Source: a virus
Taxonomy: Duplodnaviria > Heunggongvirae > Uroviricota > Caudoviricetes
Reading direction: 5' to 3' (one strand)
Virus record (IMG/VR): IMGVR_UViG_2521172732_000010
Length of the DNA stretch: 45,810 nt
How positions within the stretch are numbered: the stretch's first letter is position 1; the number at the start of each line of letters is the position of its first letter. This document shows positions 3,179 to 45,810 of this stretch, one piece after another. The position numbers and the translations under genes are program-made. Below the pieces are notes generated by a model, which saw nothing but the letters and a program-made list of their open reading frames with translations, searched no databases and was not told where the DNA came from.

Positions 3179-3394
3179 TCACCGTTCCTTAAAGACGCCG
3201 TTTAACATGCCGATCGCCAGGCTTAAATGAGTCGGTGTGAATCCCATCAGCGTTACCGTTTCGCGGTGCTTTTTCAGTACGCTACGGCAAATGTCATCGA
3301 CGTTTTTATCCGGAAACTGCGGTCTGGCTTTTTTGATTTCAGAATTAGCCTGACGGGCAATACTGCGAAGGGCGTTTTCTTGCTGAGGTGTCAT
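3179..3394 (-). CDS. small early-left (delta region) hypothetical protein, in the position of lambda orf61
   Basis: ORF in the pL operon between the zinc-finger ORF and orf63; start chosen at internal ATG (MTPQQ...). Confidence 0.5.
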   Translation of the reverse strand: MTPQQENALRSIARQANSEIKKARPQFPDKNVDDICRSVLKKHRETVTLMGFTPTHLSLAIGMLNGVFKER

Positions 3395-3470
3395 TGAACA
3401 AGTCCCATGTCGGCAAGCATAAGCACACAGAATATGAAGCCCGCTGCCAGAAAAATGCATTCAGTGGTTG

Positions 3471-3662
3471 TCATACCTGGTCTCTCTCATCTGCTTCTGC
3501 TTTCGCCACCATCATTTCCAGCTTTTGTGAAAGGGATGTGGCTAACGTATGAAATTCTTCGTCTGTTTCTGCTGGTATTGGCACAAACCTGACTCCAATT
3601 TGAGCAAGGCTATGTGCCATCTCAATGCTCGTTCTTAACTCAACAGGAGATGCTTTGTGCAT
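3471..3662 (-). CDS. lambda Orf63-like protein
   Basis: 63-aa [26 protein letters not shown]... matching my recollection of lambda orf63. Confidence 0.75.
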   Translation of the reverse strand: MHKASPVELRTSIEMAHSLAQIGVRFVPIPAETDEEFHTLATSLSQKLEMMVAKAEADERDQV

Positions 3663-3817
3663 ACAGCCCCTCGTTTATTATTTATCTCCTCAGCCAGCCG
3701 CTGGGCTTTCAGTGGATTTTGGATAACAGAAAGACCGGGAAATACCCAGCCTCGCTTTGTAACGGAGTAGACGAAAGTGATCGCACCTACCCGGATATTA
3801 TCGTGAGGATGCTTCAT
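3635..3817 (-). CDS. lambda Orf60a-like protein
   Basis: 60 codons from [17 protein letters not shown]..., overlapping orf63 and abutting exo as in lambda. Confidence 0.7.
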
Positions 3818-4494
3818 CGCCATTGCTCCCCAAATACAAAACCAATTTCAGCCAGTGCTTCGTCCATTTTTTCGATGAACTCCGGCACCATCTCGTCAAA
3901 ACTTGCCATGTAATTTTCATCCCGCTCAACCACGACATAATGCAGGCCTTCACGCTTCATTCGTGGGTCATAGTTGGCAAAGTACCAGGCATCTTTTCGC
4001 GTCACCCACATGCTGTACTGCACCTGGGCCATGTAAGCCGACTTTATGGCCTCGAAACCACCGAGCCGGAATTTCATGAAATCCCGGGAGGTAAACGGGC
4101 ATTTCAGCTCAAGGCCATTGCCGTCACTGCATAAACCATCGGGAGAGCAGGCGGTGCGCATACTTTCGTCGCGATAGATGATCGGGGATTCAGTAACATT
4201 CACGCCGGAAGTGAATTCAAACAGGGTTCTGGCGTCGTTCTCGTACCGTTTTCCCCAGGCCAGCGCCTTAGCATTAACTTCCGGAGCCACACCGGTGCAA
4301 ACCTCAGCCAGCAGGGTGTGGAAGTAGGACATTTTCATGTCAGGCCACTTCTTTCCTGAGCGGGGCTTTGCTATCACGTTGTGAACTTCTGAAGCGGTGA
4401 TGACGCCGAGCCGTAATTTGTGCCATGCATCATCCCCCTGTTCGACAGCTCTCACGTCGATCCCGGTACGCTGCAGGATAATGTCCGGTGTCAT
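3814..4494 (-). CDS. exo: Red exonuclease (lambda Exo)
   Basis: 226-aa [39 protein letters not shown]..., matches lambda Exo. Confidence 0.95.
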
Positions 4495-5276
4495 GTAGCC
4501 ACCTTCTGCTCAGTGGCTTTCTGTTTCAGGAATCCAAGAGCTTTCACTGCTTCGGCTTGTGTCAGTTCTGACGATGCGCGAATGTCGCGGCGAAATATCT
4601 GGGAACAGAGCGGCAATAAGTCGTCATCCCATGTTTTATCCAGGGCGATTAGCAGAGTGTTAATCTCCTGCATGGTTTCATCGTTAACCGGAGTGATGTC
4701 GCGTTCCAGCTGACGTTCTGCAGTGTATGCAGTATTTTCGACAATGCGCTCGGCTTCATCCTTGTCATAGATACCAGCAAATCCGAAGGCGAGACGGGCA
4801 CACTGAATCATGGCTTTATGCCGTAACATCCGTTTGGGATGCGACTGCCACGGTCCGGTGATTTCTCTGCCTTCGCGGGTTTTGAATGGTTCGCGGCGGC
4901 ATTCATCCATCCATTCGGTAACGCAGATCGGATGATTACGGTCCTTGCGGTAAATCCGGCATGTACAGGATTCGTTGTCCTGCTCAAAGTCCATGCCATC
5001 AAACTGCTGGTTTTCATTGATGATGCGGGACCAGCCATCAACGCCCACCACCGGAACGATGCCGTTCTGCTTATCAGGGAAGGCGTAAATTTCTTTCGTC
5101 CACGGATTAAGGCCGTACTGGTTGGCGACGATCAACAATGCGATGAACTGCGCATCGCTGGCATCGCCTTTAAATGCCGTCTGGCGAAGAGTGGTGATCA
5201 GTTCCTGTGGGTCGACAGAATCCATGCCGACACGTTCAGCCAGCTTCCCTGCCAGCGTTGCGAGTGCTGTACTCAT
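4491..5276 (-). CDS. bet: Red recombinase Beta
   Basis: 261-aa [40 protein letters not shown]..., matches lambda Bet; 4-nt overlap with exo. Confidence 0.95.
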
Positions 5277-5281
5277 CCGTT

Positions 5282-5578
5282 TTATACCTCTGAATCAATA
5301 TCAACCTGATGGTGAGCAATGGTTTCAACCATGTACCGGATGTGTTCTGCCATGCGCTCCTGAAACTCAACATCGTCATCAAACGCACGGGTAATGGCTT
5401 TTTTGCTGGCCCCGTGGCGTTGCAAATGATCGATGCATAGCGATTCAAACAGGTGCTGGGGCAGGCCTTTTTCCATGTCGTCTGCCAGTTCTGCCTCTTT
5501 CTCTTCACGGGCGATCTGCTGGTAGTGACGCGCCCAGCTCTGAGCCTCAAGACGATCCTGAATGTAATAAGCGTTCAT
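5282..5578 (-). CDS. gam: Gam, RecBCD inhibitor (short 98-aa form intact; long-form N-terminal extension out of frame)
   Basis: [21 protein letters not shown]... matches lambda Gam; upstream [18 protein letters not shown] start at 5697 is in a different frame. Confidence 0.9.
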
Positions 5579-5651
5579 GGCTGAACTCCTGAAATAGCTG
5601 TGAAAATATCGCCCGCGAAATGCCGGGCTGATTAGGAAAACAGGAAAGGGG

Positions 5652-5795
5652 TTAGTGAATGCTTTTGCTTGATCTCAGTTTCAGTATTAATATCCATTTT
5701 TTATAAGCGTCGACGGCTTCACGAAACATCTTTTCATCGCCAATAAAAGTGGCGATAGTGAATTTAGTCTGGATAGCCATAAGTGTTTGATCCAT
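5652..5795 (-). CDS. kil: Kil (host-killing, FtsZ inhibitor)
   Basis: 47 codons [47 protein letters not shown]. Confidence 0.9.
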
Positions 5796-5928
5796 TCTTT
5801 GGGACTCCTGGCTGATTAAGTATGTCGATAAGGCGTTTCCATCCGTCACGTAATTTACGGGTGATTCGTTCAAGTAAAGATTCGGAAGGGCAGCCAGCAA
5901 CAGGCCACCCTGCAATGGCATATTGCAT
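5764..5928 (-). CDS. cIII: CIII (FtsH inhibitor)
   Basis: 54 codons MQYAIAGWPVAGCPSESLLERITRKLRDGW... ; overlaps kil by 32 nt as in lambda; ORF is below the size cut-off of the supplied track. Confidence 0.85.
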   Translation of the reverse strand: MQYAIAGWPVAGCPSESLLERITRKLRDGWKRLIDILNQPGVPKNGSNTYGYPD

Positions 5929-6000
5929 GGTGTGCTCCTTATTTATACATAACGAAAAACGCCTCGAGTGAAGCGTAATTGGTATGCGGTAACGCTGCGC

Positions 6001-6369
6001 TCAGGCGGCCTTGATAGTCATATCATCTGAATCAAATATTCCTGATGTATCGATATCGGTAATTCTTATTCCTTCACTACCATCCATTGGAGGCCATCCT
6101 TCCTGACCATTTCCATCATTCCAGTCGAACTCACACACAACACCATATGCATTTAAGTCGCTTGAAATTGCTATAAGCAGAGCATGTTGCGCCAGCATGA
6201 TTAATACAGCATTTAATACAGATCCGTGTTTATTGAGTCGGTATTCAGAGTCTGACCAGAAATTATTAATCTGGTGAAGTTTTTCCTCTGTCATTACGTC
6301 ATGGTCAATTTCAATTTCTATTGATGCTTTCCAGTCGTAATCAATGATGTATTTTTTGATGTTTGACAT
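6001..6369 (-). CDS. ea10: Ea10-like early protein
   Basis: 122-aa ORF MSNIKKYIIDYDWKASIEIEIDHDV... matching my recollection of lambda Ea10. Confidence 0.8.
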   Translation of the reverse strand: MSNIKKYIIDYDWKASIEIEIDHDVMTEEKLHQINNFWSDSEYRLNKHGSVLNAVLIMLAQHALLIAISSDLNAYGVVCEFDWNDGNGQEGWPPMDGSEGIRITDIDTSGIFDSDDMTIKAA

Positions 6370-37808: not shown

Positions 37809-38408
37809 ATGCGTAAACTTTATGCCGCCATTTTGTCCGCAGCCATCTGTCTGGCCGTATCCGGTGCGCCTGCATGGGCGTCTGAACATCAGTCCACGCT
37901 GAGCGCGGGCTATCTTCATGCCTCGACGAACGTTCCCGGCAGTGATGATCTGAACGGGATTAACGTGAAATACCGTTATGAGTTTACGGACACACTGGGG
38001 ATGGTGACGTCGTTCAGCTATGCAGGAGACAAGAATCGCCAGCTGACCCATTACAGCGATACCCGCTGGCATGAAGATTCCGTTCGTAACCGCTGGTTCA
38101 GCGTAATGGCGGGGCCGTCTGTGCGCGTGAATGAATGGTTCAGCGCGTATGCGATGGCGGGTGTGGCTTACAGCCGTGTGTCGACTTTCTCCGGGGATTA
38201 TCTCCGCGTAACTGACAACAAGGGGAAAACGCACGACGTGCTGACCGGAAGTGATGACGGTCGCCACAGCAACACGTCTCCGGCGTGGGGAGCTGGCGTG
38301 CAGTTTAACCCGACCGAATCCGTGGCCATTGATATTGCTTATGAAGGCTCCAGCAGTGGCGACTGGCGCACTGACGGTTTCATCGTGGGTGTCGGTTATA
38401 AGTTCTGA
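37809..38408 (+). CDS. lom: Lom outer-membrane protein (Ail/Lom family)
   Basis: 199-aa ORF with signal peptide MRKLYAAILSAAICLAVSGAPAWA and beta-barrel-like sequence. Confidence 0.9.
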   Translation: MRKLYAAILSAAICLAVSGAPAWASEHQSTLSAGYLHASTNVPGSDDLNGINVKYRYEFTDTLGMVTSFSYAGDKNRQLTHYSDTRWHEDSVRNRWFSVMAGPSVRVNEWFSAYAMAGVAYSRVSTFSGDYLRVTDNKGKTHDVLTGSDDGRHSNTSPAWGAGVQFNPTESVAIDIAYEGSSSGDWRTDGFIVGVGYKF

Positions 38409-38472
38409 TTAGCCAGGTAACACAGTGTTATGACAGCCCGCCGGTTCAGGCGGGCTTTTTTGTGGGGTGAAT

Positions 38473-41368
38473 ATGGCAGTAAAGATTTCAGGTGTACTGA
38501 AAGACGGCACAGGAAAACCGGTACAGAACTGCATAATCCAGCTGAAAGCAAAACGTAACAGCACCACGGTGGTGGTGAACACGCTGGCCTCAGAAAATCC
38601 GGATGAAGCCGGGCGTTACAGTATGGACGTTGAGTACGGTCAGTACAGCGTTATTCTGTTGGTGGAAGGGTTCCCGCCGTCACATGCCGGGACCATCACC
38701 GTGTATGAAGATTCCCGACCCGGTACGCTGAATGATTTTCTCGGTGCCATGACGGAGGATGATGCCCGTCCGGAGGCATTGCGACGTTTTGAACTGATGG
38801 TGGAAGAGGTGGCGCGTAACGCGTCCGCAGTGGCACAGAACACGGCAGCCGCGAAGAAGTCAGCCAGTGATGCCAGCACATCTGCCAGTGAGGCGGCAAC
38901 CCATGCGACTGATGCTGCAGATTCAGCACGTGCAGCCAGCACGTCAGCCGGACAGGCCGCGACGTCGGCTCAGGAGGCTTTTTCCAGCGCAGGAACGGCA
39001 TCAGCAAAAGCCTCTGAGGCATCAAAAAGTGCTGCCGCTGCAGAGTCCTCAAAAAGCGCGGCGGCTACCAGTGCCGGTGCGGCGAAAACGTCAGAAACGA
39101 ATGCGGCAGCGTCACAACAATCAGCAGCCACTTCTGCATCCACCGCGACCACGAAAGCGTCAGAAGCAGCCACTTCAGCACGGGATGCGTCGGCTTCAAA
39201 AGAGGCGGCAAAATCATCAGAAACGAACGCAGCCTCGAGCGCCAGCAGCGCAACTTCCTCGGCAACGGCGGCAGCAAATTCTGCGAAGGAGGCAAAAACG
39301 TCCGAGACGAACGCTAAGTCTTCTGAAACGGCAGCGGGACAGAGCGCCTCAGCTGCGGCAGGCTCAAAAACAGCGGCTGCGTCGTCTGCCAGTGCCGCGT
39401 CAACAAGTGCCGGGCAGGCCTCAGCCAGTGCCACCGCCGCCGGAAAATCGGCAGAAAGTGCTGCATCGTCTGCTTCAACAGCCACAACGAATGCTGGCGA
39501 AGCCGCTGTACAGGCCAGCGCAGCAGCGAGGTCTGCTTCCGCAGCGAAGACATCCGAGACGAACGCGAAAGCGTCGGAAACCAGCGCAGAATCCTCAAAA
39601 ACGGCTGCCGCATCATCCGCCAGTTCGGCGGCGTCATCGGCATCATCTGCGTCTGCTTCAAAAGATGAGGCGACCAGACAGGCGTCAGCAGCGAAGGGCA
39701 GCGCCACGACGGCATCCACGAAGGCGACAGAGGCAGCTGGTAGTGCGACGGCAGCAGCTCAGAGCAAAAGTACGGCGGAATCTGCAGCAACGCGCGCTGA
39801 GACAGCGGCAAAAACGGGCAGAGGATATTGCATCCGCCGTGGCGCTTGAGGATGCGAGCACGACGAAAAAGGGGATAGTACAGCTCAGCAGCGCGACCAA
39901 CAGCACGTCTGAAACGCTGGCGGCAACGCCAAAGGCAGTAAAAGCAGCCAATGACAATGCTGAGAAACGTCTGCAGAAAGATCAGAACGGTGCGGATATC
40001 CCTGGCAAAGACACCTTTACGAAAAATATTGGTGCCTGCCGTGCCTTCGGTGGGTCAGTAAGCACAACAACAGGAGACTGGACGACTGCACAGTTTATCG
40101 AGTGGCTGGATTCTCAGGGAGCATTTAACCATCCATACTGGATGTGCAAGGGTTCCTGGTCTTATGGCAATAATAAAATCATTACTGATACTGGTTGCGG
40201 TAATATTCATCTCGCCGGAGCTGTCATTGAAGTAATGGGGATAAAGTCAGCGATGACGATCCGCATTACCACACCGACCACCTCCACTGGTGGTGGAACA
40301 ACTAACGCCCAGTTTACCTATATTAATCACGGAACAGATTATTCACCTGGCTGGCGAAGGGACTATAACTCCAGAAATAAGCCAACGGCATCAGAGATCG
40401 GGGCGTTACCGTCAGGTGGAACAGCAGTATCATCAGTTAATCTGGCTTCAAAAGGTCGGGTAACTGCGCTTACAGACAATACGCAGGGGGCAACAGGTCT
40501 TGAGTTATACGAGGTGTATAACAACGGATATCCAACAGCGTATGGAAATATTATTCACCTGAAAGGGATGACAGCCGTTGGCGAAGGTGAGTTACTCATC
40601 GGCTGGAGTGGTACAAGCGGTGCTCATGCTCCGGCATTTATTCGTTCACGACGGGATACGACCGACGCAAACTGGTCGCCGTGGGCGCAGCTTTACACCT
40701 CAGCTCATCCTCCTGCAGAGTTTTATCCAGTCGGTGCACCAATCCCGTGGCCATCAGATACCGTTCCGTCTGGCTATGCCCTGATGCAGGGGCAGACTTT
40801 TGACAAATCTGCTTACCCGAAACTTGCAGCCGCTTATCCGTCAGGCGTGATCCCTGATATGCGTGGCTGGACGATTAAGGGCAAACCTGCCAGTGGTCGG
40901 GCCGTATTGTCTCAGGAACAGGACGGTATTAAATCGCACACCCACAGCGCCAGCGCATCCAGTACGGATTTGGGTACGAAAACCACATCGTCGTTTGATT
41001 ACGGCACTAAATCCACGAATAACACCGGGGCACATACACACAGTGTGAGCGGTACAGCCGCAAGTGCCGGAAACCATACTCATAGTGTCACAGGCGCATC
41101 AGCAGTCAGCCAGTGGTCACAAAATGGGTCAGTACATAAGGTAGTGTCTGCGGCCAGTGTGAATACAAGTGCTGCAGGAGCGCACACTCATAGTGTCAGC
41201 GGCACAGCTGCATCTGCAGGTGCTCACGCACATACTGTCGGTATTGGTGCTCATACGCACTCTGTTGCGATTGGTTCACATGGACACACCATCACCGTTA
41301 ACGCTGCGGGTAACGCGGAAAACACCGTCAAAAACATCGCATTTAACTACATTGTGAGGCTTGCATAA
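38473..41368 (+). pseudogene. stf: side tail fibre Stf, frame-disrupted as sequenced
   Basis: N-terminal frame MAVKISGVLKDGTGKPVQNC... ends at 39849; the +1 frame continues ...[17 protein letters not shown]... to the Stf C-terminus ...[15 protein letters not shown]; junction is an A-run (39810-39814). Confidence 0.75.
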
Positions 41369-41949
41369 TGGCATTCAGAATGAGTGAACAACCACGGACC
41401 ATAAAAATTTATAATCTGCTGACCGGAACTAATGAATTTATTGGTGAAGGTGACGCATATATTCCGCCTCATACAGGTCTGCCAGCAAACAGTACCTATA
41501 TTGCACCGCCAGATATTCCGGCTGGCTTCGTGGCTGTTTTCAACAGTGATGAGTCATCGTGGCATCTCGTTGAAGATCATCGGGGTAAAACGGTTTATGA
41601 CGTGGCTTCCGGCGACGCGTTATTTATTTCTGAACTCGGCTCATTACCGGAAAATGTTACCTGGTTATCGCCGGAAGGGGAGTTTCAGAAGTGGAACGGC
41701 ACAGCCTGGGTGAAAGATGCAGAAGCAGAAAAACTGTTCCGGATCCGGGAGGCGGAAGAAACAAAAAACAGCCTGATGCAGGTAGCCAGTGAGCATATTG
41801 CGCCACTTCAGGATGCTGTAGATCTGGAAATCGCAACGGAGGAAGAAACCTCATTGCTGGAAGCCTGGAAAAAGTATCGGGTGTTGCTGAACCGTGTTGA
41901 TACATCAACTGCACCTGATATTGAGTGGCCTGTAATACCTGAAGTTTAA
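41368..41949 (+). CDS. tfa: tail fibre assembly protein
   Basis: 193-aa [40 protein letters not shown]... Confidence 0.9.
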
Positions 41950-41954
41950 AATAA

Positions 41955-41980
41955 AAGCCCGCTTAAAATATCGCGGGCTT
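41955..41980. terminator. hairpin between tfa and katN (possible bidirectional terminator)
   Basis: aagcccgc-(10 nt)-gcgggctt stem-loop immediately after the tfa stop; the T-rich flank is on the minus strand. Confidence 0.5.
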
Positions 41981-42068
41981 CGAAATATAAATGTATTTTC
42001 AGAGGCTAGAGCTTAGGATATCTCAGCGGCAATTAACTTATGAGGGATAGCTAAATACCAGAAGATAA

Positions 42069-42959
42069 TTAGTTTTTACTATTTATCTTTGTTTGTGGTT
42101 CTCCTTCAGCAAGCTCAGCGCCAGTGACAGGATTGATGTCTTCATGGGATTTCAACCTTGTTGCCATAGCTTTTATCATAGCTTCTTGCTTGGTCGAAAG
42201 ATTTATCGAGGCCTTCCCATCCCCACCGTCAACCGCTGGAACTGGATCGGAAACATAGTCAAAGTTTTCATCACTGTTCCAACTACCTCTGACGTCTTCA
42301 CCTTCTGACATGTTGTAATATACGTTTTTGTATTTCTCAAGTGGTGGTAATTTTCCTGGTGGAAAGGTGTTACGAATTGAATGTAATGCTTTTTCAAATG
42401 AAAGCATGTGTGCTGCTTCCCTGGTCATTAAAAATGCCAGAGTGTCTTTTACTCCAGGATCATCAGTAACATTAATGAGACGTTCGTAAATGATCTTTGC
42501 CCGAGCTTCAGCTGCAATATTTGAACGAAGATCGGCCGTGACTTCGCCAATAGTATCAACATAAGCTGCAGTCCAGGGTACTCCAGCTGAATTAGTTAAT
42601 GCTGGGCCTCCTCCGTAGAGGAGAGAAGTTATATGGCTATCATTGCCATTTTGAGTTAAGGAACGGTAAAGCTCAGCTTCATTCTCAGTTCCTTCAGCAA
42701 GTGCTCCTTTTGCACCTTTGTTGAGCATACCAACAAGAGAACCAATAATTTCGAGATGACTTAGTTCTTCTGTTGCTATGTCCATCAGCATATCCCTTCG
42801 GCCTGCATCTTCATCACTTAAGCCTTGAGTGAAGTATCGGCATGCTGCTGCAAGCTCACCCTGTGGCCCACCGAATTGTTCTAAGAGTAGATTAGCCAAG
42901 CCTGGGTTTGGCTCACTTACACGTACTGTATATTGAAGTTTTTTCACGTGTCTAAACAT
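42069..42959 (-). CDS. katN: manganese catalase (KatN-like, ferritin-like superfamily)
   Basis: 296-aa ORF with Mn-catalase-like sequence (LSDEDAGRRDMLMDIATEELSHLEIIG...), last gene of a yciG-yciF-yciE-katN arrangement. Confidence 0.75.
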   Translation of the reverse strand: MFRHVKKLQYTVRVSEPNPGLANLLLEQFGGPQGELAAACRYFTQGLSDEDAGRRDMLMDIATEELSHLEIIGSLVGMLNKGAKGALAEGTENEAELYRSLTQNGNDSHITSLLYGGGPALTNSAGVPWTAAYVDTIGEVTADLRSNIAAEARAKIIYERLINVTDDPGVKDTLAFLMTREAAHMLSFEKALHSIRNTFPPGKLPPLEKYKNVYYNMSEGEDVRGSWNSDENFDYVSDPVPAVDGGDGKASINLSTKQEAMIKAMATRLKSHEDINPVTGAELAEGEPQTKINSKN

Positions 42960-42977
42960 AATGCCTCCTCAAAAGAA

Positions 42978-43484
42978 TTATTTTTTGGCTTCAACTCCAT
43001 CAATTTCAGATCTGACCATGAATTGCTCAGTGGTGTCAGGAATATGGTTAAGAAGCCATTCAGCCATTTGTTTTTCTTCATTAAGAATTGCTTCAATAAT
43101 GGGTACTGAAGCTGTATCACCCGCATTTTTGGCTGCTGCGAGAAGAGATGTGTAACACGCAATTTCAAATTGTTCGAACACATAGCCACTGATCGAACCT
43201 TTGACAATTTCATCAGATGGAAAAATTCCACCAATGGATTGTCCAAACGCGGCCATTTTACTCATAGAGTCTTTAATGACAGAGCGCGAAATATTATTAC
43301 GATCAAGTATGCTTTCAAGCTGTGAAAGCTGGTTCTTTGTTTCGCTAATGTGCTGCTCAATTCTGGAACGTAACTCAGGATAGTTTTCTATCCGGCTGGC
43401 CATAGACTCAAGCATTTTTTCAGCTTGTTTTTCCATCGCATGTGCATCACGAAGCCAGTCATGGTAATGTTCAATTCTATTCAT
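42978..43484 (-). CDS. yciE: YciE-like ferritin-like (DUF892) stress protein
   Basis: 168-aa ORF MNRIEHYHDWLRDAHAMEKQAEKMLESMASRIENYPELR... Confidence 0.8.
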   Translation of the reverse strand: MNRIEHYHDWLRDAHAMEKQAEKMLESMASRIENYPELRSRIEQHISETKNQLSQLESILDRNNISRSVIKDSMSKMAAFGQSIGGIFPSDEIVKGSISGYVFEQFEIACYTSLLAAAKNAGDTASVPIIEAILNEEKQMAEWLLNHIPDTTEQFMVRSEIDGVEAKK

Positions 43485-43520
43485 AATCTGTTTATCCTAA
43501 AAGAAATTGAAGTCTATAAT

Positions 43521-44027
43521 TCAGGAGTTATCCTGAGCTTTTTTATTAACGTTATTAAATGCCAGGTCTGTTAATTTGACATCAGTAGCTTTTTCCTCTT
43601 CCAGTGTTTCTTTCAGGAGTTTAGCCGCTTTTTTATATCCTAATTGCTCAGCGAGTGTTACCAAAGTGCCATAACTGGCAATTTCATAGTGCTCTACTTT
43701 TTGTGCTGCAGCAATCAATGCAGCATCACGTACTTCATTTTTATCAGTGCTTTCAATTACCTCATTCGCCTCTTCGATAAGTCCTTCCATTGCGGCACAC
43801 TTAATTCTTTTCAATTTAAGACCATCTTCAGAATCAACAACCTGATCGATGCGTTCAATTTGACCATGTGTCTCATCAAGATGTGACTGAAAAGCAGCGG
43901 TTAATTTATCACTATATGCAGAGCGACTAAGTTTAGACAGTGCCTTTGTTAGTTGTTTCTCAGCGCTGTATGTATCCGATAATAAGTGGATGAAGATATC
44001 TTCAACAGATTTAATTTGCATAATCAC
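43521..44027 (-). CDS. yciF: YciF-like ferritin-like (DUF892) stress protein
   Basis: 168-aa ORF ...SVEDIFIHLLSDTYSAEKQLTKALSKL...; start codon uncertain. Confidence 0.8.
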   Translation of the reverse strand: MIMQIKSVEDIFIHLLSDTYSAEKQLTKALSKLSRSAYSDKLTAAFQSHLDETHGQIERIDQVVDSEDGLKLKRIKCAAMEGLIEEANEVIESTDKNEVRDAALIAAAQKVEHYEIASYGTLVTLAEQLGYKKAAKLLKETLEEEKATDVKLTDLAFNNVNKKAQDNS

Positions 44028-44099
44028 TCCAGAGTTTTCACTGCGAGCCCGTAGGCTCGCAGTTAGCTTCAGTTATTCACGAATGTAGGGGGTGATAAA

Positions 44100-44282
44100 T
44101 TAAGAGCCAGATTTACGGCCGCCACCATGGCTATTCTGACCACCTTTTTTCCCTGCTTCTGATGCTCTTTGTGGATCGTTTTTAAAATTACCGCCACTAT
44201 GTTGGCCGCCTTTACTACCAGCGTCAGAAGCTTTTTGTCGATCTTCAGCGAAATTACCTGCACCGCCACGATGTTCGGTCAT
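44100..44282 (-). CDS. yciG: YciG-like KGG-repeat general stress protein
   Basis: 60-aa Gly-rich ORF with repeated KGGQ-type motifs. Confidence 0.75.
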   Translation of the reverse strand: MTEHRGGAGNFAEDRQKASDAGSKGGQHSGGNFKNDPQRASEAGKKGGQNSHGGGRKSGS

Positions 44283-44724
44283 ATCATTTCTCCTCTGATT
44301 TTCAAATTGTAAATAACATGTGCCTTGTCAGCACCCAATTAACTCTAGTAACAAATAAGAAAGTGTCAAATAAGAGATTGGTATGCGCATCTTAATGTGA
44401 GAAATAGCAATTGTAAAAATGTGTACTCAGTGAGTATAATCTATTGATATCTTGGTGATTAACGGAAAGTTTAGGTTGTAACTCAAAAGATTAATAAATC
44501 TAAATTTACATTTCTATATCTTTTGATGTGTATGGCGTTGTTTTTCTCAATCAGAACATTCTAAAAAATAATTTAATTACACGGCGGTAGTTGTTAATGT
44601 TTTTACGACTCTTCCTAATGAAGTCTGTTTCTTGGATAAATAGAGAAATTTTATCTTAAGGACTAATTACAAAAACATCTATATAGCCACAGGAATCATT
44701 ATTGTACTTAACTACAATATTTGA

Positions 44725-44774
44725 GAGTAAAAATTAAACCGCAGACACGGCGTATGCAAGAACGTGCTGCGGTT
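44725..44774 (-). terminator. intrinsic terminator downstream of the methyltransferase gene
   Basis: Minus-strand hairpin aaccgcagcacg...cgtgtctgcggtt followed by taattttt. Confidence 0.6.
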
Positions 44775-44779
44775 GGATG

Positions 44780-45448
44780 CTATTTTTTCCCTGAAGCGGA
44801 AAACATTACTACAGTACCTTGAACCTTGGTTTTAACATTCTCGAAATGCTCTGAGAGTATATGTGTTAAGCCTTCTTCGGAATCTTTTGTGTTTGAAAAG
44901 ATGCCTTTCTGATTGTAAATGCGCATCAGTTTTTGACCGAAGCTATTGTGCACAACTCCATCGCCAAGAATTGTGGCTCCGTATAGAGTTCCATCGTCAG
45001 TTAAGGCCTGCGCCGCATTGCGTATTACACAGCTTTTTGTAGATATATTTCCAGGCAGGCAGTGAAGAAGGTAAAACATGGAAATGGAATCAAATTGACC
45101 ATGTAACGCCGCGGGATAAGGTTCAAAAACATCATGGCTAATTTTATGTTTAATTTTTGATTCCCCAGCCCTTGTAGATGCCGCGTTCAGGCTAGCTTCG
45201 TTCAAATCCATTAAAGATATCAGACTACTCTCAGGTACGTGAGTAAGGTAAAACCCAGTTCCAACACCAATATCCAGATGGTTGTTACCTAAATGTTCCA
45301 GAAAGTGTGGAAGAAGGTGTTCCTTTGTAGGACATCCCCATGCAAGACGATTTGATACTCCCAAAACCCACCAGTCATAAAGCTTTAGGGTAAGTGGTGT
45401 GTAAATTTTAGCCCCATCATCTGTGTTTTTTTTCATTAATTTCACCAT
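44780..45448 (-). CDS. class I SAM-dependent methyltransferase (substrate unknown)
   Basis: 222-aa ORF with motif I LDIGVGTGF. Confidence 0.65.
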   Translation of the reverse strand: MVKLMKKNTDDGAKIYTPLTLKLYDWWVLGVSNRLAWGCPTKEHLLPHFLEHLGNNHLDIGVGTGFYLTHVPESSLISLMDLNEASLNAASTRAGESKIKHKISHDVFEPYPAALHGQFDSISMFYLLHCLPGNISTKSCVIRNAAQALTDDGTLYGATILGDGVVHNSFGQKLMRIYNQKGIFSNTKDSEEGLTHILSEHFENVKTKVQGTVVMFSASGKK

Positions 45449-45504
45449 GTTATAGTTTTATTTGTGAATTAAATCAATTATGGCGATGAATTACAAGGGG
45501 TTAA

Positions 45505-45810
45505 ATGCTGCCGCAGCATAGCGATATTGAAATAGCCTGGTATGCTGCGATACAGCAGGAGCCGAATGGCTGGAAGACCGTCACCACACAGTTCTACATC
45601 CAGGAATTCAGTGAGTATATTGCGCCACTGCAGGATGCTGTAGATCTGGAAATCGCAACGGAGGAAGAAAGATCGTTGCTGGAGGCATGGAATAAATATC
45701 GGGTATTGTTGAATCGTGTTGATACATCAGTAGCTCTGGGTATGAAGCTGTTTGTAACTCATGTTACAGTAATGGCTATTACTATCTCGAAGGTGCAAAA
45801 TGTATATTGA
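45505..45810 (+). pseudogene. truncated tail fibre assembly (tfa) C-terminal remnant
   Basis: Contains ...[37 protein letters not shown], about 90 percent identical at DNA level to 41788-41907 of tfa, but lacks the tfa N-terminal region and has a divergent tail. Confidence 0.6.
45610..45729 (+). repeat. about 120-bp direct repeat of tfa 41788-41907
   Basis: agtgag(c/t)atattgcgccact(t/g)caggatgctgtagatctggaaatcgcaacggaggaagaaa... present at both positions in the same orientation. Confidence 0.85.

Follow-up and report, generated by a model that had tools for sequence, protein, structure and literature searches.

A truncated tfa copy beside ybcY in a lambda-like prophage as a probable pseudogene relic, with the katN operon as independent cargo

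The IMG/VR virus record IMGVR_UViG_2521172732_000010, a stretch of 45,810 nucleotides referred to here as the window, carries at its right end two direct copies of the 3' part of the tail fibre assembly gene tfa, between which lie a manganese catalase operon (katN-yciE-yciF-yciG) and a ybcY-type methyltransferase gene. An earlier note on this DNA had taken the two copies for the recombination scar left by the arrival of the intervening 3.7 kb, and the bracketed segment for a cassette deletable by homologous recombination. The window holds nearly all of a lambda-like prophage that is integrated in icd and virtually identical to a prophage of Escherichia coli O111:H21 strain 15A; it contains int-xis, exo-bet-gam, cI/cro, O/P, the nin region, Q, lysis genes, the terminase through J, lom, stf and tfa. 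Its last nucleotide coincides with the stop codon of a tfaX-like open reading frame (ORF), and the prophage continues past it: in NZ_CP077477 the sequence beyond the window holds an alpha/beta hydrolase gene, ompT, a helix-turn-helix (HTH) gene, an acetyltransferase gene and the icd' duplication at attR. In the list below, empty-slot phages are those in which tfa and ybcY are separated only by a short spacer; EHEC stands for enterohaemorrhagic E. coli and SAM for S-adenosylmethionine.

41368-41949, plus strand: tfa, intact, 193 amino acids, last gene of the stf-tfa operon (Pfam Caudo_TAP, PF02413, positions 1-131 of 131, E=3.4e-45, 153.8 bits; phrog_105).
41711-41909, plus strand: repeat copy 1, the 3' part of tfa, with its core at 41788-41907 (Rfam IS009, 229.5 bits, model positions 1-199).
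41932-44732, minus strand: the 2.8-kb cargo unit, standing where empty-slot phages have a 29-nt tfa tail and spacer.
42069-42959, minus strand: katN, manganese catalase, EHEC Z1921 (Pfam Mn_catalase, E=4.8e-87; PMC5363993).
42978-43484, minus strand: yciE-like ferritin-like gene (Pfam DUF892, E=1.2e-50).
43521-44027, minus strand: yciF-like ferritin-like gene (Pfam DUF892, E=3.2e-54).
44100-44282, minus strand: yciG-like gene for a KGG-repeat general stress protein (Pfam KGG, E=2.4e-16).
44733-44779, no strand assigned: shared hairpin/terminator region, located after tfa and before the ybcY 3' end in empty-slot phages (alignment to PhiR29_1); right boundary of the slot.
44780-45448, minus strand: ybcY-type class I SAM-dependent methyltransferase gene, 222 amino acids (Pfam Methyltransf_12/23/25; phrog_2132).
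45449-45527, no strand assigned: divergent spacer between ybcY and tfaX, a promoter region with a promoter-like site at 45504-45477 on the minus strand (consensus match only).
45505-45810, plus strand: tfaX-like ORF, 101 amino acids, orthologue of K-12 tfaX (b0563), with a replaced or decayed tail (phrog_2341, E=1.6e-55; K-12 tfaX alignment).
45528-45731, plus strand: repeat copy 2, a tfa 3' fragment with its core at 45610-45729 and a decayed 5' 80 nt that includes a 5-nt indel (IS009, 109.1 bits, model positions 1-199).

A repeat search of 38000-45810 returned the tfa 3' pair as the only long repeat. In ungapped comparison, 41788-41907 and 45610-45729 share 108 of 120 bases (90%) in direct orientation, just as the earlier note had described them, and the longest exact run common to both is 40 nt (41809-41848). 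A match of this quality is expected by chance with a probability of ∼1e-47 per register, or ∼2e-38 over all register pairs of the window. The length of about 120 bp given in the earlier note holds for the 90% core, to the left of which ungapped identity reaches background within ∼10 nt and to the right of which it is ∼55%; the homologous unit is larger. Alignment to the Rfam IS009 model extends it to ∼200 nt (41711-41909 versus 45528-45731), with the 5' 80 nt ∼55% identical and interrupted by the 5-nt indel, an alignment that scored better than 2,000 of 2,000 shuffles. On the right, decayed similarity of ∼58% reaches ∼45757.

The two copies reside in genes of different status. The tfa ORF overlaps the stf stop codon and matches the Caudo_TAP domain over its full length, and its counterpart in NZ_CP077477 is annotated as a tail fiber assembly protein. 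The ORF containing copy 2 matches Caudo_TAP positions 75-121 only, lacking the N-terminal 74 and the last 10; no stf gene lies upstream of it, and the sequence after the domain match looks unrelated to tfa, which agrees with the earlier description of a copy without the N-terminal two-thirds and with another tail. The Prokaryotic Genome Annotation Pipeline labels it a pseudogene, "tail fiber assembly protein, missing N-terminus". Residues 1-87 of the ORF match positions 1-87 of the 88-position phrog_2341 profile, including a specific, non-tfa N-terminal segment of 35 residues, and alignment with K-12 shows near base-for-base identity from the spacer next to ybcY through the first half of tfaX, as far as the middle of the core. 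These matches, together with the gene order of DLP12 described below, identify copy 2 as the orthologue of K-12 tfaX.

In DLP12 the genes tfaD-ybcY-tfaX-appY-ompT have the same order and orientation as in the window, namely tfa (+), ybcY (-), a tfa fragment (+) and cargo containing ompT, and the same pair of IS009 matches falls on the tfaD 3' end and on tfaX. In both, tfaX is divergent from ybcY, downstream of tfa and upstream of the ompT-containing cargo. DLP12 differs from the window in having no catalase operon between tfaD and ybcY, and its ybcY is a pseudogene; an in-frame stop limits K-12 tfaX to 61 amino acids, its second half and tail are not those of the window, and the gene after it is appY in place of the alpha/beta hydrolase gene. 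The arrangement is widespread. Among 80 IMG/VR prophage loci, selected for an intact ybcY of at least 99% identity, tfaX adjoins ybcY in 79, and ybcY with the spacer is present in 3,798-3,844 of 5,426 complete E. coli genomes (∼70%), the genome set to which the E. coli counts below also refer. In some of the IMG/VR loci (L009, L012 and L014, ∼3236-5682 in window orientation) ybcY-tfaX has as its upstream neighbour an opposite-strand ORF of 547 aa which, inspected by eye, looks like a leucine-rich-repeat effector; it is preceded by a tail-fibre-assembly gene of another family. In these loci tfaX is the sole lambda-type tfa sequence and there is no direct repeat.

The catalase operon occupies a separate site between tfa and ybcY. 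Homology between the window and the phages PhiR29_1, Turner and PhiR68_2 breaks off at 41930/41931, six codons short of the tfa stop, and restarts at 44733/44736. PhiR29_1 has the order stf-tfa-ybcY-tfaX with the same repeat and with flanks 97.7-98.6% identical to the window, but contains only a 29-nt spacer and no catalase operon. A third state, pin plus ynaE, is found in Turner, Kati and PhiR68_2 at the same boundaries as the katN cassette. The short stretch from codon 188 of tfa to its terminator (41931-44733 in the window, 5633-5661 in L002, 4132-5885 in L004) can thus hold a 29-nt spacer, pin and ynaE (1.75 kb) or the katN operon (2.8 kb), and each content brings its own final tfa codons, which read TNPARE, ALP or VIPEV before the stop. 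In the window the cargo unit supplies the last six tfa codons (VIPEV and the stop), a hairpin at 41957-41978, katN-yciE-yciF-yciG and a 450-nt AT-rich region upstream of the operon. The contiguous, empty-slot tfa-ybcY junction occurs in at least 2,187 genomes, the catalase operon in 382 and the full arrangement of the window in 345; the cassette-specific tfa tail and spacer (41928-42068) are present in 381 genomes versus the 382 with the operon, a comparison of totals rather than of genome lists. On the right, the terminator region contains a terminator-like hairpin at 44751-44738 on the minus strand, and 42 nt of this region are also found after tfaX in strain SW4848 and after the cassette in L007. 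The G+C content of the operon and ybcY is 31-44%, versus 47-62% for stf, as expected for acquired cargo.

The operon also occurs apart from the repeat. In L006 and L007, prophages located at ydfJ and at the lambda att site, it follows tfa and the attachment-site end comes almost directly next, with neither ybcY nor tfaX present. The operon is the last cargo before attR in these prophages, where the terminator region found ahead of ybcY in the window is reduced to 13-44 nt; either ybcY-tfaX and the remainder were deleted, or the operon moved together with that terminator. Within the cassette itself, the 450 nt upstream of yciG (44283-44732) have a G+C content of 31-34% and no match in 80 katN-bearing species genomes, and contain, besides a 22-nt palindrome-like inverted repeat at 44483-44526, the best promoter-like matches of the region (e.g., 44369-44342, minus strand).

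Since the operon has its own junctions, since the repeat is far commoner without it and since it is found without tfaX, the katN operon is a unit separate from the repeat. The geometry on which the earlier note had relied is real: direct copies, 90% identical and with a 40-nt exact block, physically flank all of the cargo, the prophage encodes Exo, Bet and Gam, and no second tail-fibre locus lies downstream. Nevertheless, that the two tfa 3' copies are the scar of a 3.7-kb insertion comprising the catalase operon and the methyltransferase gene, and delimit a deletable cassette, is distinctly improbable. The repeats flank only ybcY in the empty-slot genomes and in free phages such as PhiR29_1, as they do in K-12 DLP12; the operon junctions, ∼41931 and ∼44733, lie well inside the bracket; the operon persists without tfaX in L006 and L007; and deletion products are absent from the places that carry the necessary substrate, as described next. 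If copy 2 is a scar, it dates from an earlier event in which ybcY, along with a tail-fibre module, became linked to a resident tfa.

A 40-nt identity within 120 nt at 90% is a minimal substrate for RecA and a good one for the Red system, which this prophage encodes as Exo, Bet and Gam. Homologous deletion of the bracketed DNA is therefore mechanistically possible, and to that extent the deletability proposed in the earlier note stands. Complete E. coli assemblies were searched with a synthetic deletion junction composed of the tfa middle part, the repeat, the tfaX tail and the hydrolase-side flank, a query that addresses tfa alleles resembling that of the window in the middle region; none of the 5,426 genomes covered more than 60% of it, which leaves no natural variant with a hybrid repeat in that set, even though the right-hand substrate (this tfaX tail and its flank) is present at 1,220 places in 1,207 genomes. 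Judging from these assemblies, the 3.8-kb deletion is not a variant that persists in nature, and it would leave tfa with an aberrant C-terminus.

The earlier note had also raised the case in which the repeat would belong to an intact second tail-fibre locus continuing beyond the window, such as an invertible segment; what lies there instead is the hydrolase-ompT-HTH-acetyltransferase-icd' series. Duplicated tfa-family sequences near stf are a point of resemblance to the Mu G/Gin, P1 C/Cin and e14 P/Pin systems, the Tfa homologues of P1 and P7 are located in invertible segments, and in related phages the slot that separates tfa from ybcY is itself occupied by a Pin-type serine invertase gene. 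Several observations speak against copy 2 as what is left of such an invertible segment. Copy 2 is direct rather than inverted, the window has no invertase and none is encoded in the 8 kb that follow it, no inverted repeat longer than 23 nt was found, and no alternative stf C-terminus or fibre tip stands beside tfaX. Sites of the gix/hix-like type AAACCNNGGTTT, at which such invertases would cross over, number 3 versus 1.4 expected and are unpaired, which is chance level; one of these chance-level sites lies inside ybcY (44821-44832). An origin of copy 2 by inversion is hardly credible on this evidence.

Both copies align over the whole 199-position model of IS009 (RF02111), a candidate small RNA (sRNA) family, copy 1 scoring above the gathering score of 117 bits with 229.5 and copy 2 below it with 109.1 (E=2.5e-25). 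The repeats might on that account be two copies of an sRNA gene, the second a stand-alone gene driven from the ybcY/tfaX spacer promoter; in K-12 this spacer is listed as a binding site for RpoD holoenzyme and H-NS, the polymerase binding having been found by genomic SELEX (systematic evolution of ligands by exponential enrichment; PMC3946193). This is very unlikely. Both copies lie within ORFs on the same strand, their folding is no better than that of shuffled sequences (z=-0.77 for copy 1 and +0.03 for copy 2), and conservation tracks codon positions. The tfaX clade breaks 8-9 of 23 consensus pairs, one pair is changed on both sides and the best helices are invariant among 12 representative sequences, a small and closely related sample; the consensus structure thus has no support beyond sequence conservation. 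IS009 corresponds to the 3' 200 nt of lambdoid tfa on the coding strand (41711-41909 and 45528-45731 in the window; 5857-6055 and 6899-7102 in L170), and IS009 matches in prophages consequently mark tfa genes and tfaX relics. A literature search found no experimental characterisation of IS009 and no functional study of tfaX, ybcY or IS009, the reports found merely listing them.

The nature of the differences between the two cores bears on where copy 2 came from. Twelve base differences fall in 11 codons, of which eight are changed synonymously and three non-synonymously, a synonymous bias with P=8e-4 under a flat mutation model. Mostly synonymous differences indicate that the copies diverged mainly while both encoded working proteins, and divergence under such coding constraint makes another tfa allele a likelier source of the fragment than a local duplication. 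A local tandem duplication, in which the tfa 3' end and terminator were duplicated when ybcY inserted and copy 2 then decayed neutrally, would account for the many loci whose tfaX retains a natural tfa tail followed by the same 42-nt terminator region, as a duplicated target would. It is nonetheless unlikely: the excess of synonymous codons (8 of 11) is unexpected for the neutral decay of a dead copy, the contrast between a 5' 80 nt at ∼55% identity and a core at 90% fits two alleles better, and neither transposon ends nor a mechanism for duplicating 200 bp is evident.

In its present state tfaX has the marks of a pseudogene. The 5-nt indel disrupts the ancestral tfa frame upstream of the core; over the 35 tfaX-specific N-terminal codons, polymorphism comprises 5 synonymous and 10 non-synonymous changes and 2 stops; and about 15 of the 79 tfaX-bearing IMG/VR loci (∼19%) have nonsense or frameshift alleles of tfaX despite an intact neighbouring ybcY. 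TfaX as a selected protein was considered and rejected on account of this neutral-looking polymorphism and the ∼19% of disrupted alleles. In the O157:H7-type strain 472, the tfaX tail also carries ISEc8, an element of the IS66 family, between the core and the hydrolase gene (L171, 4754-7200; ∼45753 in window equivalents), and many O157:H7 matches have ∼2.4 kb of extra length with the same insertion sequence annotation in the tfaX tail.

The tfaX alleles are in addition mosaic, with breakpoints inside or at the end of the core. One allele class has tfa-like variants across the whole core, and the K-12 allele changes type in mid-core, near the window equivalent of 45675-45684. In many further alleles, that of SW4848 among them, a natural tfa tail (e.g., PTSPAE or PEEPDTM before the stop) resumes directly behind the equivalent of 45729, and the class to which the window belongs has a SVALGMKLF tail. 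Linked variant blocks are common to tfaX and intact tfa genes, and the tail types examined pair with different downstream modules: hydrolase plus ompT, appY plus ompT, or an attR end. Mosaic alleles and the pairing of tails with modules mark the conserved tfa 3' block as a recurrent crossover point. Lambdoid phages exchange modules at conserved sequence blocks, giving rise to mosaic joints and morons, and recurrent crossover at such a block is usual for lambdoid mosaics. The locus resembles these in its low-GC cargo after the tail-fibre operon, its alternative contents at fixed boundaries and the clustering of breakpoints in the tfa 3' block; it differs in that the right-hand conserved block is a truncated tfa copy rather than an intact gene.

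Taken together, we conclude that copy 2 is probably a pseudogene relic derived from a different tfa allele, that the katN operon is independent cargo and that its bracketing by the repeat is a by-product. Copy 2 would represent the 3'-terminal ∼40% of a once-functional allele. Most likely, a block consisting of stf-tfa, the terminator, ybcY and the promoter spacer was joined non-homologously into the middle of a resident tfa, leaving tfaX, and the composite tfa-ybcY-tfaX then spread through the lambdoid prophages of E. coli. Free of constraint at the protein level, tfaX has probably had its core patched repeatedly by homologous recombination with intact tfa genes, and the same core has probably served as the crossover point at which right-arm modules (hydrolase-ompT, appY-ompT or attR ends) were exchanged. 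The katN-yciE-yciF-yciG unit would have taken the place of the 29 nt of tail and spacer that separate codon 188 of tfa from its terminator. The repeat could mediate a rare RecA- or Red-dependent deletion of 3.8 kb, but was not the route by which the cassette arrived. The sequences demonstrate the repeat, what the genes are, that cassette and repeat are independent, where the junctions and mosaic breakpoints lie, that tfaX alleles are disrupted and that deletion products are lacking. We infer how recombination took place, that ybcY and tfaX were joined non-homologously, and the order of events, the last from present-day distributions rather than from a rooted phylogeny.

That last point weighs against this reconstruction, as do several others. 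The P value of the synonymous bias rises to ∼0.08 once a strong transition bias is allowed for by doubling the synonymous share, and the bias could in part reflect gene conversion at a later time, with functional tfa alleles as donors, instead of where the fragment came from. About 80% of tfaX alleles are still open frames and the K-12 RefSeq entry lists TfaX as a protein, such that some residual TfaX function is possible. Empty and filled slots replace each other (29 nt versus 2.8 kb), and the direction of the exchange is argued from frequency and from the three alternative contents. Deletions at low frequency within populations are invisible to an assembly search.

A more active role for the relic can also be considered, in which the truncated tfa has been retained as a portable right-hand homology arm for lambdoid phages that have the conserved tfa 3' block. 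If so, a second crossover in the tail genes would lead to uptake of a whole tail-fibre (host-range) module along with ybcY and the slot cargo, and host-range swaps would travel as one unit with virulence or stress cargo, here the katN oxidative-stress operon. Varied tails and modules on a constant ybcY-tfaX block, with breakpoints in the core, are what this proposal predicts, and passive mosaicism predicts the same equally; we regard it as possible but doubtful.

With tfaX read as a relic and the operon as independent cargo, the feature is already known in kind: it combines the widespread K-12 tfaX relic, an IS009 match beside ybcY, with the known EHEC katN operon, in an ordinary lambdoid mosaic. 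The four co-oriented genes of the window encode one Mn-catalase, two DUF892 and one KGG domain by Pfam, the content of the yciGFE-katN operon described on the EHEC O157:H7 cryptic prophage CP-933X as Z1921-Z1924 (Wan et al., 2017; PMC5363993). The cargo of the window is 99.8% identical in nucleotide sequence to O157:H7 genomes, with the same flanks, but the strain that carries the window prophage in its icd gene is not O157 and is closest to O111:H21 15A, and tfaX there is free of the ISEc8 insertion common in O157:H7. KatN was reported in one study to be an effector secreted by the type VI secretion system. The practical consequence is that the EHEC katN catalase operon is not misread as a repeat-bounded, self-deleting cassette, and recognition of the interval between tfa and its terminator as a cargo slot helps the annotation of lambdoid prophages and the tracing of katN spread among pathogenic E. 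coli; beyond such housekeeping of annotation the importance is small.

As to the source of the operon, the best relatives of KatN among 80 species genomes are 86-87% identical and belong to Phytobacter, Kosakonia and Yokenella, and the context ompW-katN-yciEFG-trpA was found in Salmonella only. The cassette flanks, 41932-42075 and 44276-44740, had no match to the katN loci of those genomes. In SW4848 a ybcY-tfaX prophage ends at an ompW' attachment-site duplication beside the chromosomal yciE-yciF-yciG, which have the order and orientation seen in the cargo (L089, 5800-9100). Capture of the operon by aberrant excision of a prophage from the ompW site was considered on this basis, but is unsupported: besides the results just given, the cargo is only 74% identical in nucleotide sequence to the E. 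coli chromosomal yciEFG.

Outside the tfa-tfaX region, the annotation of the near-identical 15A prophage places an internal stop in its major capsid gene (NZ_CP077477, 1002955-1003980; ∼19900-20900 in window equivalents), and judging from that annotation the prophage may be defective.

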